A DNA stretch of 34,825 nt, taken from a virus. Lineage: Duplodnaviria > Heunggongvirae > Uroviricota > Caudoviricetes. Within the stretch, counting starts at the first letter, position 1. Each line of letters begins with the position of its first letter. Shown here piece after piece: positions 7,686 through 14,854 of this stretch. The position numbers and the translations under genes were made by a program. The notes beneath the pieces were generated by a model. The model did not search any database and was not told the DNA's origin. It saw only the letters and a list, made by a program, of their open reading frames with translations. The stretch is taken from the IMG/VR virus record IMGVR_UViG_2563366951_000001, positions 1-34,825 of that record; one strand, given 5' to 3'.

Positions 7686-8174
7686 ATGAGTCTTTTGAAT
7701 GAAGTTCAGAAATTCATTGAAGCCCATCCGGGATGTACTTCCGGAGACATTGCGGATGCTTTTGCAGGTTACTCACGGCAGCGCGTTCTGCAGTCAGCAA
7801 GCAAGTTACGTCAGAGTGGGCGTGTGGCTCACCGTTGTGAAGGAGATACACGCAGACATTTCCCGCGCCTGACTGAGAGAGCGCAGGAACCGGAACCACA
7901 ACCAGTTCGAGAAACCAGACCTGTGCGCAATTTCTATGTCGGCACTAACGATCCACGGGTGATTTTGTGCCTGACCCGCCAGGCTGAAGAACTGGAGTCC
8001 AGGGGCTTATACCGTCGTGCTGCAACCGTGTGGATGGCGGCATTCCGTGAAAGCCACTCCCAGCCAGAACGAAACAATTTTCTGGCGCGTCGTGAGCGGT
8101 GCTTACGGAAAAGCAGCAAGCGCGCTGCATCGGGTGAAGAGTGGTATCTGTCAGGGAATTACGTGGGGGCTTAA
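7686..8174 (+). CDS. PerC-family-like transcriptional regulator
   Basis: C-terminal AEELESRGLYRRAATVWMAAF resembles the PerC motif (from memory); N-terminal HTH-like region; ATG at 7686 with AGGGGG SD (track start 7680 is GTG). Confidence 0.5.
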   Translation: MSLLNEVQKFIEAHPGCTSGDIADAFAGYSRQRVLQSASKLRQSGRVAHRCEGDTRRHFPRLTERAQEPEPQPVRETRPVRNFYVGTNDPRVILCLTRQAEELESRGLYRRAATVWMAAFRESHSQPERNNFLARRERCLRKSSKRAASGEEWYLSGNYVGA

Positions 8175-8827
8175 TGAGTAATAAATATTGCCAGGCGCTG
8201 GTGGAACTGCGGAACAAACCAGCCCATGAACTGAAGGAAGTGGGCGATCAGTGGCGCACGCCGGACAACATTTTCTGGGGAATTAACACCCTGTTTGGCC
8301 CGTTTGTTCTGGATCTGTTTACTGACGGTGATAACGCCAAATGTGCCGCGTATTACACGGCGGAAGATAACGCGCTGGCGCATGACTGGTCAGAACGTCT
8401 TGCGGAGCTTAAAGGTGCTGCCTTTGGTAATCCCCCATACAGCCGCGCCAGTCAGCATGAGGGGCAATACATCACCGGCATGCGTTACATCATGAAACAT
8501 GCCAGTGCCATGCGTGATAAGGGCGGGCGCTATGTTTTCCTGATCAAAGCTGCCACCAGCGAAGTGTGGTGGCCGGAAGATGCGGACCATATTGCTTTTA
8601 TTCGCGGGCGTATTGGTTTTGAACTGCCTGCCTGGTTTATCCCGAAGGATGAGAAGCAGGTGCCGACAGGCGCTTTCTTCGCTGGTGCTATTGCTGTTTT
8701 CGACAAGACCTGGAAGGGACCGGCAATCAGCTACATCGGGCGCGATGAACTTGAGGCATGTGGTGAAGCCTTTCTGGTGCAGGTTCGCCAGCAGGCGGAA
8801 AAACTGGTCAGGGAGATGGCGGCATGA
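8174..8827 (+). CDS. phage N6-adenine DNA methyltransferase (Dam-like, phage Dam family)
   Basis: Catalytic NPPY motif (AAFGNPPYS); TAATG stop-start overlap with upstream gene at 8172-8176. Confidence 0.85.
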   Translation: MSNKYCQALVELRNKPAHELKEVGDQWRTPDNIFWGINTLFGPFVLDLFTDGDNAKCAAYYTAEDNALAHDWSERLAELKGAAFGNPPYSRASQHEGQYITGMRYIMKHASAMRDKGGRYVFLIKAATSEVWWPEDADHIAFIRGRIGFELPAWFIPKDEKQVPTGAFFAGAIAVFDKTWKGPAISYIGRDELEACGEAFLVQVRQQAEKLVREMAA

Positions 8828-9150
8828 CGACGTTAACTCAATGCCAGCAGCAGGTGCTGGATATGCTGATTTCTTACCAGAAAGAGCGTGGCTTTCCGCC
8901 AACCAATCAGGAGGTGGCAACCATGCTGGGATACCGTTCAGTGAATGCAGCGGTAGAGCATCTTCGTGCACTGGAGAAAAAAGGCGTCATCACGATAAAG
9001 CGTGGCGTGGCCCGGGGGATAACGCTTCATACCGCGGTGAAGGACGACGACAGCGAGGCGGTCGGGATTATCCGCGCACTGCTTGCCGGTGAGGAAAACG
9101 CCAGGCTGCGTGCAGCCCACTGGTTACATGAGAGGGGCCTGAAAGTATGA
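8824..9150 (+). CDS. LexA N-terminal DNA-binding-domain-only protein
   Basis: TQCQQQVLDMLISYQKERGFPPTNQEVATMLGYRSVNAAVEHLRALEKKGVITI parallels the LexA N-terminal domain ([54 protein letters not shown], from memory); no S24 peptidase domain. Confidence 0.6.
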   Translation: MTTLTQCQQQVLDMLISYQKERGFPPTNQEVATMLGYRSVNAAVEHLRALEKKGVITIKRGVARGITLHTAVKDDDSEAVGIIRALLAGEENARLRAAHWLHERGLKV

Positions 9151-9536
9151 AGCTGATCCTGCCTTTCCCGCCCAGCGTGAACACGTACTGGCGACACCCC
9201 AACAAAGGGGCGTTTGCTGGTAAGAGCCTGATAAGCGCGGCGGGGCGCAAATTCCAGAGCGCGGCGTGCGCAGCAATAGTTGAGCAGTTACGTCGTCTGC
9301 CGAAACCAACGTCGGCACCTGCTGCAGTGGAGATCGTGTTGTTTCCACCGGATAACCGGATCCGCGATCTGGACAACTATAACAAGGCGCTGTTTGACGC
9401 CCTGACCCACGCGGGTGTGTGGGAAGACGACAGTCAGGTGAAAAGAATGCTGGTGGAGTGGGGACCGGTTGTCCCGGAAGGGAAGGTCGAGATCACTATC
9501 AGTAAGTACGAGAAAACGGCGGGTGCAGCCGCCTGA
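9147..9536 (+). CDS. rusA: RusA Holliday junction resolvase
   Basis: ILPFPPSVNTYWRH...RDLDNYNKALFDALTHAGVWEDDSQV matches RusA signature (PWPPSNNRYYRH...[26 protein letters not shown], from memory). Confidence 0.9.
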   Translation: MKLILPFPPSVNTYWRHPNKGAFAGKSLISAAGRKFQSAACAAIVEQLRRLPKPTSAPAAVEIVLFPPDNRIRDLDNYNKALFDALTHAGVWEDDSQVKRMLVEWGPVVPEGKVEITISKYEKTAGAAA

Positions 9537-9555: not shown

Positions 9556-10353
9556 ATGAATAATCTGATGGTCATTGATGGTATTGAAGTTCGTCGTGAT
9601 GCTTATGGGCGTTACAGCCTGAACGATCTGCACAGGGCTGCCGGTTCTCTGGATAAGCATAAGCCTGCATTCTGGCTCCGCAATGAGCAAACTGAACGTT
9701 TAATAAGCGAGTTGCAGATTTGCAACTCGGTCAATATAGAGCCAGTTAACGTTATTCGTGGCGGAAATAACCAAGGGACGTATGTCTGCAAAGAACTGGT
9801 GTATGCCTATGCAATGTGGATCAGCCCGTCATTCCATCTGAAGGTGATCCGTACTTTCGATATGGTAACCAGCACACCGGAAAAATTATCCGGGCAGGCT
9901 GCTGACAAGATGCAGGCTGGCGTGATCCTGCTGGACTTTATGCGCCGGGAATTAAACCTGTCTAACTCATCAGTGCTTGGAGCCTGTCAGAAGCTTCAGG
10001 AGGCTGTTGGCTTACCGAATCTGGCACCGCGCTATGCTATTGATGCTCCTGCTGACGCGCCTGATGGCTCAAGCCGCCCGACACTGTCACTGAGTGCACT
10101 GCTGAAACAGTATGGTATCTGCCTGACGGCTAATCAGGCATATCACCAGATGGCGAAGCTGGGGATCGTTGAACAACGCGAACGATACAGCCGTACCGCG
10201 ATTAACAACATCAAAAAATTCTGGTCGCTGACAGCGAAAGGCTGCATGTTCGGCAAGAACATCACCAGTCCTGCAAATCCGCGTGAGACGCAGCCGCATT
10301 TCTTCGAATCCCGATTCACTGAGCTGTTAAAGCTGCTCGATACCGTTCATTGA
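9556..10353 (+). CDS. KilA-N domain protein (antirepressor-like)
   Basis: N-terminal KilA-N-type region (IDGIEVRRDAYGRYSLNDLHRAAG...FWLRNEQTERLISEL); strong GAGGAGA SD. Confidence 0.75.
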   Translation: MNNLMVIDGIEVRRDAYGRYSLNDLHRAAGSLDKHKPAFWLRNEQTERLISELQICNSVNIEPVNVIRGGNNQGTYVCKELVYAYAMWISPSFHLKVIRTFDMVTSTPEKLSGQAADKMQAGVILLDFMRRELNLSNSSVLGACQKLQEAVGLPNLAPRYAIDAPADAPDGSSRPTLSLSALLKQYGICLTANQAYHQMAKLGIVEQRERYSRTAINNIKKFWSLTAKGCMFGKNITSPANPRETQPHFFESRFTELLKLLDTVH

Positions 10354-10354
10354 G

Positions 10355-11350
10355 GTGACCGTGAGAGCACTACTGACCCCTGAAATTGCCCCGCGTATGG
10401 GGATCGTATTGTTCAGGCCAGGTTCAGAGCTGATGCCCCTGTTTATGCAGGGGCGTGTCCTGCTGGAGCCTGAGCCGGAACGTTATTCATCTTTCGCCAG
10501 TGGTGCCGTTCCGGCGGCATCACAACCGCTGGCGGATGATCCTGCCGTTCGGGCCGTGTTCCGCAATGAGGCAGTGATCCGTCGTGCTGGTGGCGTGGAA
10601 TGTCTTGAAAGCTGGTTACTTCGTGAAAAAGGCTGCCAGTGGCCTCATTCCGACTGGCACAGCGAGAACATGACAACAATGCGACACGCTCCGGGCGCAA
10701 TCCGTTTGTGCTGGCACTGCGATAACCAGCTGCGCGATCAGTTCACGGAACGGCTGGAATCAATGGCAACGGATAACAGTGCCCGCTGGGTGTTGTCTGT
10801 TGTGCGTCGGGATCTCGGTTTTGATGACAGTCATGTTGTGACAATGCCGGAACTGTGCTGGTGGCTGATTCGTAATGATCTGGCGGATGCCTTACCGGAA
10901 AGTGCAGCCCGTAAGGCACTGAGATTACCGAAGCCTGTTGTGCTGTCTGTTACCCGGGAAAGTGACCTTGTGCCTTCGGTTCCTGCCACCAGCATCATCC
11001 AGGATAAGGCGAAAAAGGTGCTGGCGCTGAAAGTGGATCCGGAGTCGCCGGAGTCTTTTATGTTACGCCCCAAACGTCGCCGCTGGGTTAATGAAAAGTA
11101 CACGCGCTGGGTTAAGACGCAGCCGTGCGCATGTTGTGGAAAACCTGCTGATGATCCCCACCACCTGATAGGTCACGGTCAGGGTGGAATGGCTACAAAA
11201 GCGCATGACCTCTTTGTGTTGCCTTTGTGCAGAAAGCATCACGACGAGCTGCATGCGGATACCGTGGCATTTGAAGAGAAGTATGGCTCCCAGCTGGAGC
11301 TGATATTTCGTTTTATCGATCGTGCACTGGCAATTGGCGTGCTGGCCTGA
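10355..11350 (+). CDS. DUF968-family protein with C-terminal HNH-like Cys/His cluster
   Basis: C-terminal CACCGKPADDPHHLIGHGQGGMATKAHDLFVLPLCRKHHDELH; conserved position between RusA/KilA-N and Q; start codon uncertain (GTG at 10355 or 10361). Confidence 0.7.
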   Translation: MTVRALLTPEIAPRMGIVLFRPGSELMPLFMQGRVLLEPEPERYSSFASGAVPAASQPLADDPAVRAVFRNEAVIRRAGGVECLESWLLREKGCQWPHSDWHSENMTTMRHAPGAIRLCWHCDNQLRDQFTERLESMATDNSARWVLSVVRRDLGFDDSHVVTMPELCWWLIRNDLADALPESAARKALRLPKPVVLSVTRESDLVPSVPATSIIQDKAKKVLALKVDPESPESFMLRPKRRRWVNEKYTRWVKTQPCACCGKPADDPHHLIGHGQGGMATKAHDLFVLPLCRKHHDELHADTVAFEEKYGSQLELIFRFIDRALAIGVLA

Positions 11351-11367
11351 TTTTGTGGAGAAAGTTG

Positions 11368-11709
11368 ATGCGTGATATGTATGAAGTATTGGACCGCTGG
11401 GGTGCATGGGCTGCAGCAGATAACAGTGGTGTGGACTGGCAGCCTGTTGCTGCAGGGTTTAAAGGTTTACTACCTCATGGAAAGAAAACACGCCAACAAT
11501 GCGATGATGATGAAGGAATCATGATTGACAGCTGTGTTGCGCGATTGCGGAAATATAAGCCCGAAGAGTATGAGTTGGTTATTGCTCATTTTGTTATCGG
11601 CATCTCACTAAGAACTATTGCAAAGAAGCAGAAGTGTTCTGATGGGACAATAAGAAAAGAGTTGCAAACAGCTCTTGGTTTTCTGGATGGTGTGCTTTCA
11701 ATGTTGTAA
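11368..11709 (+). CDS. Q: antitermination protein Q (Phage_antitermQ family)
   Basis: MRDMYEVLDRWGAWAAADN...AAGFKGLLP...QQCDDDEG matches remembered family members (MRDIQMVLERWGAWAANN...); GGAG SD 7 nt before ATG at 11368 (track start 11353 is TTG). Confidence 0.8.
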   Translation: MRDMYEVLDRWGAWAAADNSGVDWQPVAAGFKGLLPHGKKTRQQCDDDEGIMIDSCVARLRKYKPEEYELVIAHFVIGISLRTIAKKQKCSDGTIRKELQTALGFLDGVLSML

Positions 11710-11714
11710 TATTA

Positions 11715-11737
11715 GGGGGAATTACCCCCCTTTTTTT
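11715..11737 (+). terminator. intrinsic terminator immediately after Q (GGGGG-loop-CCCCC + T7)
   Basis: GGGGGAATTACCCCCC followed by TTTTTTT; the stem also overlaps the last codons (KKGG*) of the convergent minus-strand membrane-protein gene. Confidence 0.6.
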
Positions 11738-12270
11738 CTCTGTTGCTTTAATAAAATTTTAATATTTTGTCTGATTATGATGAGGCAATGTAATAAAAGA
11801 AATACCGTTAGTATTGCAAGCCATACGCAAAATAAGCATGCATATAAATTAGTTGAAAGTCCAATAGTGAATTGTGCAATTGCTGTTGTGATAGAACATA
11901 ATATTGATGTATTAATAAATGAGGATAAATTGTCTAAAGGTTTATAAAGTACACTATCATTGATTTTGTCAATAGGTATACCAGTGGCAATGCTATAAAT
12001 TTCCTTATATTCCTGAGTTGCAAAAACCTTATCGCGTAAATTTATTATGACAAAGGTATGCAGGCTCAATAAAAATGAGCCCACGGAAATAAAACCGGAG
12101 AAGAGATAGCCTCGTAAGTTTTTATGATAAAAATCAAAAAAGTTAACACTTACTTTAGGTGTGTTTCTGTACAATAGGTAAAGTGCAAGCAATGCCAGGA
12201 TCGAGAATGCAAGCAGTGTAAGGTACTGATACCTCAATCTTTTATTTATTAGCCATTCATATAAAGGCAT
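11722..12270 (-). CDS. predicted 4-TM small membrane protein (182 aa), cassette gene 2; unknown function
   Basis: Four hydrophobic helices (LTLLAFSILALLALYLLY; LFSGFISVGSFLLSLHTFVIINL; FINTSILCSITTAIAQFTIGL; LYACLFCVWLAILTVFLLLHCLIII) and basic C-terminus; AT-rich; start overlaps upstream gene stop by 14 nt. Confidence 0.7.
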   Translation of the reverse strand: MPLYEWLINKRLRYQYLTLLAFSILALLALYLLYRNTPKVSVNFFDFYHKNLRGYLFSGFISVGSFLLSLHTFVIINLRDKVFATQEYKEIYSIATGIPIDKINDSVLYKPLDNLSSFINTSILCSITTAIAQFTIGLSTNLYACLFCVWLAILTVFLLLHCLIIIRQNIKILLKQQRKKGG

Positions 12271-13183
12271 TTTTATTCGTCCCGTTCAGCATTTCTTCTT
12301 TTATCATATCAAAAACAGGGTTTGTTGTATAATTATCGTTTGTCAATCCATTGACTTTATCGGCAATTATATCGAAATCGTATGTTTCAAAAAAAACAGG
12401 GCAGTTCATAAAATCAATGGTTTTTTCTATTCCTGCATGGTTTACTGCAATAACCTGTGCTTTAGCAACTCCACTCATAGAATTATAAATATTTGAAAGA
12501 TTCTGAGATAGTTGTTGCACTTTTGTTCTGTCGCTAGAATTAAAATTCATATCTATTGTGGTGGTGTTAACAAATTGTTCAAGCGCAGTCATTGGTCCAC
12601 CTTTAAAATCTATATAATTAAATTTAAAGCTTGTGCTTTTAATCTCTTTGAATTGACATAAAACACTCTGAATGTTGTTTTTATTTGTCATAAGGCTGAA
12701 AGTCAGTCTTTCTTTGTATTTTTTATTTATTGCAGTTACTTCTTTTTGTTTTGGTTTATCACCAAGTTTTTTTATTTCTTCTTTATTTTGATTTCTGATA
12801 AATTCATTACTTATTGTTTCTAAATGAGAAAAGAGAGTGTTCAGACTGCATGAACCGTGGTGATACATATAGAGACCAGAAAGATTAGATTTTTTAATTA
12901 AGAAAAAGTTGAAATTAGCAAGTTTGTCACTTCCTTGAAGATCTTCAATTTTAAGCTGGAATTTACCATCAACAAATTGCGACTTACAGTTCTTTTTTTG
13001 GTTTCTGAATGTGACAACTAATCCATAATAGAAATCATTCACATCCGAAATGAGAATTTTACGAGTATAGTCTGTGCGACTGTGTTCTCTGTTTGATGCG
13101 TTGATAAAAGCATTCATTACGTCAACGGTATTAATATTTTTGTTATTGTTATTTATTGTAAATCCTATGCTTCTAACTTTCAT
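12257..13183 (-). CDS. hypothetical soluble protein (308 aa), cassette gene 1; unknown function
   Basis: Long AT-rich ORF, Asn/Lys-rich, no TM segments, no P-loop, HEPN or PD-(D/E)xK motif recognisable by eye; antisense to the flanking phage operons. Confidence 0.7.
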   Translation of the reverse strand: MKVRSIGFTINNNNKNINTVDVMNAFINASNREHSRTDYTRKILISDVNDFYYGLVVTFRNQKKNCKSQFVDGKFQLKIEDLQGSDKLANFNFFLIKKSNLSGLYMYHHGSCSLNTLFSHLETISNEFIRNQNKEEIKKLGDKPKQKEVTAINKKYKERLTFSLMTNKNNIQSVLCQFKEIKSTSFKFNYIDFKGGPMTALEQFVNTTTIDMNFNSSDRTKVQQLSQNLSNIYNSMSGVAKAQVIAVNHAGIEKTIDFMNCPVFFETYDFDIIADKVNGLTNDNYTTNPVFDMIKEEMLNGTNKNAFI

Positions 13184-13326: not shown

Positions 13327-13447
13327 GTACCTGTAAACCTTGTGCAGTACAGTAAACACGCTGGTGGTCGTGAATACTGGCTTTTTATCTTGCTGGCTTT
13401 TTAGACAAGAGTTATTGGTATGTCATGTTAACCAGAAGGGAAAAGAC

Positions 13448-13651
13448 ATGCTAAAACAGCAAGATATGACAGAAACCGCCGCCGCAGTCCTTCATTTCTT
13501 ACCTGCTGACAAGTGGGTAACGCCACGCATGATGACGAGAACTACCGGAGTAAGCGAAGCCCGGTGCCAGTTAATACTGACTCAGTTAGTTCTGGCGGGT
13601 CTGGCGAAGGATAACGGCGGGTACGGGAATAAATTCAGACGCTGCCAGTAA
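13448..13651 (+). CDS. hypothetical small protein (67 aa), possibly DNA-binding
   Basis: ATG at 13448 with GAAGGGA SD; track start 13340 is TTG and unlikely; no confident domain. Confidence 0.45.
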   Translation: MLKQQDMTETAAAVLHFLPADKWVTPRMMTRTTGVSEARCQLILTQLVLAGLAKDNGGYGNKFRRCQ

Positions 13652-13801: not shown

Positions 13802-14854
13802 ATGAAAAATACTGTAAAAATAAACAGTGTTGATTTAATCAACGCTGATTGCCTGCATTTTATTCAGTCCCTGCCTGATGATTCCATTGACCTGATTGTT
13901 ACCGATCCGCCTTACTTCAAGGTGAAACCTAACGGTTGGGACAATCAGTGGAAAGGGGACGAAGATTACCTTAAGTGGCTGGACCACTGTCTGGCCCAGT
14001 TCTGGCGGGTGTTAAAACCTGCCGGAAGCCTTTACCTGTTCTGTGGGCATCGCCTGGCATCTGATATTGAGATCATGATGCGTGAACGTTTCAACGTGCT
14101 TAACCATATCATCTGGGCGAAGCCGTCCGGACGTTGGAATGGGTGTAATAAAGAAAGTCTGCGCGCATATTTTCCTGCCACAGAGCGCGTTCTGTTTGCT
14201 GAACATTACCAGGGGCCATATCGCGGCAAAAGTGACGGCTATGCGGCAAAAGAAAGGGAACTCAAACAGCACATAATGGCACCGCTGATATCGTATTTCA
14301 GGGATGCTCGTGCCGAACTGGGTATAACGGCAAAACAAATTGCCGAAGCCACAGGTAAGAAAAATATGGTTTCCCACTGGTTTGGTGCCAGTCAGTGGCA
14401 GTTGCCGAATGAGGCTGACTATCGGAAGTTACAGGCACTGTTTTCCCGTATAGCGGCAGAGAAGTTTCAGGAACAACAACTGGAACAACCACACCACCAG
14501 CTGGTGGCATCTTATGATTCACTGAATCGCAAATATTCTGAATTGCTGGATGAGTTTAAATCTCTCCGGCGCTATTTCTCCGTATCAGTCTCCGTGCCTT
14601 ATACCGATGTCTGGACGCATAAGCCCGTTCAGTTCTACCCGGGTAAACATCCGTGCGAGAAACCGGCGGATATGCTCCGGCAAATAATCAATGCCAGTAG
14701 TCGACCTGGTGATCTGGTTGCTGATTTCTTTATGGGATCCGGTTCCACAATAAAAGCAGCAATGGCGCTGGGGCGTCGGGCGTTAGGTGTTGAACTTGAG
14801 TCAGAGCGGTTTAATCAGACGGTGAAAGAGGTAAGTGAACTGGTGGGGAAATAA
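13802..14854 (+). CDS. DNA methyltransferase, beta-class amino-MTase (N6-adenine or N4-cytosine), orphan
   Basis: DPPY catalytic motif near N-terminus (IVTDPPYF) and FxGxG AdoMet motif near C-terminus (DFFMGSGST); motif order IV then I indicates beta class; no adjacent restriction gene. Confidence 0.85.
   Translation: MKNTVKINSVDLINADCLHFIQSLPDDSIDLIVTDPPYFKVKPNGWDNQWKGDEDYLKWLDHCLAQFWRVLKPAGSLYLFCGHRLASDIEIMMRERFNVLNHIIWAKPSGRWNGCNKESLRAYFPATERVLFAEHYQGPYRGKSDGYAAKERELKQHIMAPLISYFRDARAELGITAKQIAEATGKKNMVSHWFGASQWQLPNEADYRKLQALFSRIAAEKFQEQQLEQPHHQLVASYDSLNRKYSELLDEFKSLRRYFSVSVSVPYTDVWTHKPVQFYPGKHPCEKPADMLRQIINASSRPGDLVADFFMGSGSTIKAAMALGRRALGVELESERFNQTVKEVSELVGK

Follow-up and report, generated by a model that had tools for sequence, protein, structure and literature searches.

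What use might a phage have for a LexA-type DNA-binding domain that carries no protease? The question is raised by an open reading frame (ORF) of 108 codons plus stop, with an ATG start, at 8824..9150 (+) of a 34,825-nucleotide stretch of viral DNA (IMG/VR record IMGVR_UViG_2563366951_000001, positions 1 to 34,825). The whole stretch, hereafter the 34.8-kb window, is a lambdoid prophage, and we refer to the ORF as the LexA-like gene. We tentatively propose, at a probability of roughly 45%, that its product is a dimeric, delayed-early, phage-specific DNA-binding regulator that stems from a LexA N-terminal domain, escapes cleavage via RecA and uses an operator diverged from the SOS box.

A LexA-type winged helix with a different C-terminus

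The ORF had been picked out in a preliminary description made from the sequence, whose coordinates were exact and whose assignment to the LexA-type winged helix-turn-helix (wHTH) proteins agrees with Pfam and with the LexA structures 1lea and 3jso. The profile search proposed there returned LexA_DNA_bind (PF01726) as the best family, matched over model positions 1 to 65 of 65 (E=2.9e-19; score 69 bits, cutoff 23.7), with the runner-up HTH_Crp_2 (E=1.4e-3) and all other winged-helix families below their cutoffs. The N-terminal domain of Escherichia coli LexA (1lea) aligned without gaps to residues 2-70 (E=6.5e-16), and an AlphaFold2 (AF2) model with a mean predicted local distance difference test score (pLDDT) of 83 superposed on the LexA-DNA complex 3jso with a root-mean-square deviation (rmsd) of 1.0 Å over 68 residues at 50% identity. 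The modeled elements are helices at 6-22, 28-35, and 40-52 and strands at 56-58 and 66-68 (pLDDT about 78-89). The likeness to LexA, first thought to run along the whole product, holds for residues 1 to about 70, but residues 71-108 form a linker and a two-helix tail.

The LexA protease is absent. A Pfam scan of the 108-amino-acid protein found no match to Peptidase_S24, and the NCBIfam lexA equivalog TIGR00498 was matched at model positions 1-91 of 203 only, with a score of 70.5 bits below the cutoff of 110.95. Unlike E. coli LexA (1lea, 1jhh, 3jso), the protein has neither the S24 domain nor the catalytic Ser119/Lys156 and ends in a two-helix hairpin instead, so that it departs from a canonical LexA in three of five defining features (S24 domain, cleavage site, equivalog score). 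The earlier claim that it is not RecA-cleavable is well supported because the S24 domain is missing. HMMER aligned A88-G89 of the tail ('ALLAGE') with Ala84-Gly85 of the LexA cleavage region ('RVAAGE'). The AG pair is not conserved, with LLANE, VERE, LTRK, IDDQ, and LACS in relatives, and a profile of the family tail matched no S24-bearing LexA at E<0.01; on both grounds we rejected a remnant cleavage site and cleavage in trans by LexA or cI.

The tail has an architecture of its own. Its helices span residues 74-88 and 93-103 in the AF2 model, following a linker whose length differs between relatives in the family alignment, and relatives that are 42-53% identical share the pattern EA..hhR.Lh...A...A..hL...G, in which A97 and L101 do not vary. 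Full-length Foldseek matches were all weak and comprised YtrA-type GntR proteins (6sbs, 3tqn), MecI (1sd7), Rv1846c (2g9w), and MntR. The YtrA-type GntR and BlaI/MecI-like proteins also have a few helices after the wHTH, which in them make up the dimer interface, but share architecture only, at 13-26% identity and an rmsd of 4.5-10 Å and with no sequence relationship to the LexA-like protein. Because these full-length analogues are small dimeric wHTH regulators with C-terminal dimer helices, the modeled hairpin probably takes over the dimerization role of the absent S24 domain. A Klebsiella sibling family (Kp4866-6 L060:2368-2760; P0135, P0141) has an N-terminal domain 66% identical over residues 1-68, with A44 and T45, and also lies upstream of rusA, with an unrelated C-terminal extension in place of the hairpin. 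Since this sibling keeps the winged helix and the position but differs C-terminally, function appears to center on the winged helix, with the C-terminus an exchangeable oligomerization or adaptor module. A further set of proteins of 160-350 amino acids (P0133, P0148, P0151, P0152, P0157, P0161, P0164) has two tandem LexA_DNA_bind domains and no S24 domain; these amount to covalent 'dimers' of the winged helix, another route to a two-headed, protease-less LexA-like binder.

The gene sits between the replication gene and Q, in the nin-like region where the preliminary description had placed it, and is tied to its neighbors by ATGA overlaps on both sides, with the dam stop at 8824-8827 and with the rusA start at 9147-9150. 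This makes it a delayed-early gene of the pR operon, the timing being read from its position. E. coli lexA, in contrast, is chromosomal, regulates its own expression, and has SOS boxes of its own.

Divergence of the DNA-reading surface

An exhaustive homologue search of 1.8 billion representative proteins returned mostly ordinary LexAs together with a distinct set of proteins of about 105 to 135 amino acids, 42-53% identical and matching through residue ~105. The tail-bearing members detected came from Enterobacterales alone (Shigella, Citrobacter, Kosakonia, Buttiauxella, Enterobacter, and Hafnia). In LexA, the helix-3 contacts to DNA are Ser39, Asn41, Ala42, Glu44, and Glu45 (PMC3091678). 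The LexA-like protein retains four of the five (S39, N41, A42, and E45), as well as H46, R64, and G65, but has V44 for E44 and N28 for R28, and these two losses extend across the family. Position 28 is Arg in 20 of 23 S24-bearing LexAs and in none of 89 tail-bearing family members (a redundant set); position 44 is Glu in 19 of the 23 LexAs and in 0/89 of the same redundant set, where V, A, F, L, Y, T, or R stands instead. S39, N41, R64, and G65, which are kept in LexAs, are almost invariant in the family. The recognition helix itself changes from subfamily to subfamily (NAAVEH, NTIAGH, NAATDM, NGAFEH, NAAAEH, NAVLLH, NTVFIH), and a Citrobacter protein, 66% identical overall, carries four consecutive changes at positions 42-45. 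The DNA-reading surface has thus diverged from that of LexA.

Across the Citrobacter, Kosakonia, Enterobacter, and Buttiauxella hosts, LexA's DNA-binding domain and the SOS box are taken to be essentially invariant. That the whole family should read one host SOS box would be unexpected, because the recognition helix differs between members while host LexA and its boxes stay nearly constant. The S24 dimer, which sets the half-site spacing of LexA, has moreover been replaced by another module. Taken together, these sequence features point to a specificity that probably differs from the SOS box.

A putative phage-specific regulator

We propose that a lambdoid lineage may have derived the LexA-like gene from the 5' half of a proteobacterial lexA, keeping the winged helix and replacing the S24 protease and dimerization domain with the two-helix hairpin, which on the structural model would most likely give a dimer. 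The protein would be made from the pR operon (cro, cII, O-like, PerC, Dam, LexA-like, RusA, KilA-N, DUF968/HNH, Q) and would appear after induction or infection, and RecA-stimulated self-cleavage would be unable to inactivate it. With a DNA-reading surface that has departed from LexA's, it would most likely recognize its own operator and act as a transcription factor, a role for which there is one characterized precedent.

That precedent, the closest analogue with a known function, is gp6 of the Bacillus tectivirus GIL01, a truncated LexA homologue of 66 amino acids that binds its own palindrome (GaCACAnnTGTGaC) at -43.5 of the late promoter and activates this promoter, in a phage that relies on host LexA to maintain lysogeny (Fornelos et al. 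2018, PMC6182141). Both proteins are phage-encoded LexA DNA-binding domains without a protease, both belong to early operons (early expression being read from operon position in our case), and they share the same wHTH layout at 35% identity in a MAFFT alignment. They differ in that gp6 has no C-terminal hairpin and comes from a tectivirus, whereas the phage studied here is lambdoid, encodes a cI(S24) repressor of its own, and depends on Q for late transcription. Identity to the host's LexA is 44% for gp6 (Bacillus thuringiensis) and 50% for the LexA-like protein (E. coli). Because each is closer to the LexA of its own host and BLASTP found no alignment between the two, they are analogous, independent captures of the 5' half of lexA.

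Several observations pull the other way. Late transcription depends on Q, so there is no obvious regulatory gap for a second regulator to fill. A scan of the window for palindromes with 5-mer half-sites at spacings of 0-14 found none with three or more occurrences and none enriched; CTG/CAG was in excess at all spacings, with codon usage the most likely source. The candidate operator CTGTA-N12-TACAG at 13331, just past a tR'-like terminator, was rejected as it does not track with the gene: it was absent from all 60 loci compared, including SfII and Shigella copies that carry the LexA-like gene, and the segment around it occurs in 383 phage records, most of them without that gene. Finally, with four of the five LexA helix-3 contacts kept in the E. 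coli variant, SOS-box-like (CTG-containing) half-sites would be possible targets. The inverted repeats found between 3300 and 14000 were either ori-like iterons or weak, dispersed pairs, and none had a link to the LexA-like gene.

SOS boxes as possible targets

The preliminary description had offered SOS boxes or the phage's own operators as targets, with competition against LexA as a consequence. The own-operator half is the one that the analysis supports better. The other half amounts to an uncleavable LexA mimic, which would bind SOS boxes and repress host SOS genes and LexA-controlled elements in lytic growth after LexA has been cleaved, and we regard it as unlikely. It draws on the 50% identity and close fit to the E. 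coli LexA DNA-binding domain, on S39, N41, A42, E45, and the wing residues R64-G65 kept in the E. coli variant, on the missing protease domain, and on a plausible benefit, as an induced phage can suffer harm or competition from functions under LexA control. Going by their titles and abstracts, two studies reportedly indicate TisB, which is SOS-induced, and antirepressors of other prophages, which LexA controls, as such functions. Set against this, no family member keeps R28 or E44, the latter a listed DNA contact; the Citrobacter, Kosakonia, Enterobacter, and Buttiauxella relatives do not share one recognition helix; and the S24 dimer that fixes half-site spacing is absent. On these grounds binding to SOS boxes and competition with LexA are not supported and look unlikely.

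The distribution of SOS boxes leads the same way. The search for CTGT-N8-ACAG that had been suggested gave one perfect match in the window, and matches with at most one mismatch numbered 17 against 12.3 expected, which is not significant. With a position weight matrix built from E. coli SOS boxes (training-site median of 20.9 bits), the sole convincing box was the near-consensus TACTGTAAAAATAAACAGTG at 13810-13829, at 22.4 bits, compared with 16.3 bits for the best of 50 shuffles and 9.8 bits for the next site in the window. This box lies within a late-region gene for an N6/N4 DNA methylase (13802-14854), at codons 3-9. Every methylase-bearing E. coli/Shigella phage record (28/28) also carries the LexA-like gene, the two genes lying only about 4.5 kb apart; conversely, 22 of 50 phages with the LexA-like gene have no methylase. 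The box is identical in the Citrobacter phage phiNP, in whose 14.6-kb locus tblastn detected neither a LexA-like gene nor rusA. In the Klebsiella phage Kp4866-6 its right arm is changed at four positions and CTG-N10-CAG is kept, while the sibling protein there has A44 and T45. We therefore rejected the box as a dedicated target of the LexA-like protein, given its identity in phiNP, where tblastn of the 14.6-kb locus detected no LexA-like gene, and the missing methylase in 22/50 carriers. It is most simply an operator for host LexA, which suggests that the gene at 13802-14854 is an orphan phage methylase under host LexA and SOS-inducible.

Directly 3' of the box lies a perfect palindrome, GTTGATT-T-AATCAAC (13826-13842), part of an inverted repeat, I4, at 13822-13850. 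Just 5' of the methylase is a gene for a small phrog_331 protein (13448-13651), labeled a TrmB-family regulator in some phage records, and the palindrome could be a second operator at the methylase start, perhaps for this protein.

Slightly more doubtful is the sharper proposal that the protein acts as an uncleavable competitor at LexA-type operators, with which an induced prophage would silence SOS-controlled functions once host LexA is destroyed; examples would be LexA-controlled antirepressors of rival prophages, colicins, or toxins such as TisB. If it were true, the gene would be an SOS 'off-switch' and an inter-prophage weapon in about 40% of E. coli genomes, including those with Stx2c and some Stx2a phages.

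Evolutionary rate and the link to RusA

Close copies are under purifying selection, as the ratio of nonsynonymous to synonymous substitution rates (dN/dS) was 0.075 in the comparison with the Shigella copy L009. At longer distances the LexA-like gene is the fastest-evolving of its module. Relative to the window, dN in the Citrobacter locus L011 was 0.224 for the LexA-like gene, 0.049 for RusA, and 0.064 for DUF968, and in more distant loci it was 0.42-0.54, 0.15-0.32, and 0.27-0.45, respectively, so that the ratio of LexA-like dN to RusA dN within the loci is about 1.5-4.6. Such rates fit a determinant of specificity that evolves in step with its own target, as the phage-specific regulator would be.

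The company that the gene keeps admits a different role, in which the winged helix directs or restrains cleavage by RusA and/or the DUF968 HNH protein and has no part in transcription. The order LexA-like, RusA, (KilA-N or Ant), DUF968 was found in the 18 loci examined, which range from 42 to 99% identity and have varied immunity and replication modules, with a 5' neighbor that varies; rusA lies directly 3' or one small gene away (tblastn in 15 loci, Pfam in L007 and L008; L020 unconfirmed). The start/stop overlap with rusA is in keeping with such a role, as is P0159, a natural fusion of a winged helix to a DUF968 HNH C-terminus. We nevertheless consider an accessory of the recombination module improbable. 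Phages in which Dam directly adjoins RusA and no LexA-like gene is present (Salmonella ST64B, Yersinia YeP1/2, Hafnia yong2, and most Klebsiella phages) carry RusA of the same clade, at 60-81% identity, so the LexA-like gene is an optional insert, and we rejected it as an obligate partner of RusA. PhiNP keeps DUF968 with no LexA-like gene detected; the difference in rate from RusA argues against tight co-evolution; and gene order in nin regions is generally conserved, which makes synteny weak evidence. The P0159 fusion comes from a single contig of an apparently decaying prophage and resembles a deletion; it was not weighed.

Rapid divergence and a variable recognition-helix surface would also fit an arms-race interface, that is, a protein-binding adaptor that has lost specific DNA binding and uses the LexA-like fold as a scaffold to bind a protein of host or phage. 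Structure matches to the model include 8trg, LexA on the RecA filament. The known partners of LexA, however, engage its C-terminal domain, which the LexA-like protein does not have, and the near-invariance of S39, N41, R64, G65, and I66 (helix cap and wing) together with a net basic charge suggests that DNA contact has been retained; we rate this role as very improbable. That the gene is a non-functional remnant of a captured lexA, as its truncated look and the resemblance of 'ALLAGE' to the LexA cleavage region might suggest, is effectively refuted by conservation: a dN/dS of 0.075, a frame intact in thousands of genomes, a tail conserved at 42-53% identity, a good Shine-Dalgarno sequence, and overlaps on both sides.

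Distribution and annotation

The LexA-like gene is extremely common. At a nucleotide identity of at least 95%, 41% of complete E. coli genomes (2,233 of 5,426) carried it, in up to four copies per genome and about 2,850 E. coli copies overall, and 50 phage records carry it with 95-99% nucleotide and 96-99% protein identity and identical neighbors. Carriers include SfII (SfII_44), SfV (orf42), SfIV, mEp460, cdtI, phi1720a-02, Stx2c phages, and some Stx2a phages, and thus Shigella serotype-converting phages as well. The gene is already annotated in databases, as 'LexA family transcriptional regulator,' 'LexA DNA binding domain protein,' or, in PHROG 362, 'transcriptional repressor'; these annotations rest on homology. 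The phage proteins so labeled are the same gene, with no difference, and the PHROG 362 profile matched protein residues 1-108 over positions 1-106 of 106 (E=1.6e-59). The anti-phage defense models of PADLOC gave just a weak generic wHTH match. Targeted literature searches found no experimental study of any family member; a preprint on phi1720a-02, itself a carrier of the gene, credits Cro alone with the interference of this phage with a prophage in the same host.

Other labels go further. Copies in KF030445.1, LR595868.1, LR595862.1, AB285204.1, and MT225100.1 are variously called 'SOS-response repressor and protease LexA,' 'RecA-mediated autopeptidases,' or 'LexA repressor,' and RefSeq copies of the adjacent Dam gene are called 'phosphoadenosine phosphosulfate reductase.' The protease, autopeptidase, and Dam labels look like annotation errors spread by homology. 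If the protein is the phage-specific regulator proposed here, the gene would be an ordinary accessory gene, and the practical value of the analysis would lie mostly in correcting the protease and autopeptidase labels, since the protein can be neither. Were the protein to act on the SOS network or on rival prophages, it would be relevant to the induction of Shiga-toxin phages and to prophage competition, and would be the second independent re-use by a phage of a host LexA DNA-binding domain after GIL01 gp6.

Prophage context

The features of the LexA-like gene and of the surrounding early region are listed in Table 1; lysis and morphogenesis genes follow downstream of Q.

Table 1. Coordinates of the LexA-like gene's features and of neighboring prophage genes in the 34.8-kb window
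Feature	Position	Strand	Basis or remark
IS110-family transposase (DEDD_Tnp_IS110 + Transposase_20)	691-1968	-	adjoins integrase, left end of element
Integrase	2233-3363	-	
cI	4884-5510	-	HTH_3 and S24 domains
Probable cro	starts about 5609		
CII-like gene	5732-6397		
O-like replication gene	6742-7683		
PerC-like gene	7680-8174		
Dam methylase	8141..8827	+	PF05869, E=1.1e-45; 5' neighbor of LexA-like gene
Shine-Dalgarno sequence GGGAG	8811..8815	+	8 nt 5' of LexA-like ATG; read from sequence
LexA-type wHTH, residues 1-68	8824..9027	+	Pfam, AF2, 3jso superposition
Recognition helix region, residues 39-52 (SVNAAVEHLRALEK)	8938..8979	+	gapless LexA alignment, contact list, family statistics
Flexible acidic linker, residues 69-74 (HTAVKD, then DD)	9028..9045	+	pLDDT <50 at 71-75
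C-terminal two-helix hairpin and last residues	9043..9147	+	AF2 block, pLDDT 87-89; proposed dimerization module
RusA Holliday-junction resolvase	9147..9536	+	PF05866, E=5.3e-15; 3' neighbor of LexA-like gene
KilA-N protein	9556-10353		
DUF968/HNH protein	10355-11350		phrog_96
Q	11353-11709		

Within the module rusA, (Ant/KilA-N), DUF968, Q, DUF968 is the most constant partner, and its protein, an HNH nuclease, weakly resembles the P1 Ref-type RecA-dependent nuclease (PF16786, E=0.036). Between Q and the late promoter region, two overlapping ORFs of 181 and 307 amino acids lie on the minus strand at 11722-13183. Neither matches Pfam or PADLOC, the larger belongs to phrog_2802, and in SfII their position is occupied by SfII_49 and SfII_50; the pair looks like a moron cassette expressed in the lysogen. 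The O-like gene contains, at 7044-7106, two adjacent near-perfect inverted repeats, GTCAGATTCTGAC / GTCAAAATCTGAC and GACGCATCAAAATCTGAC / GTCAAAATTTGATGCGTC, which are probably origin iterons.

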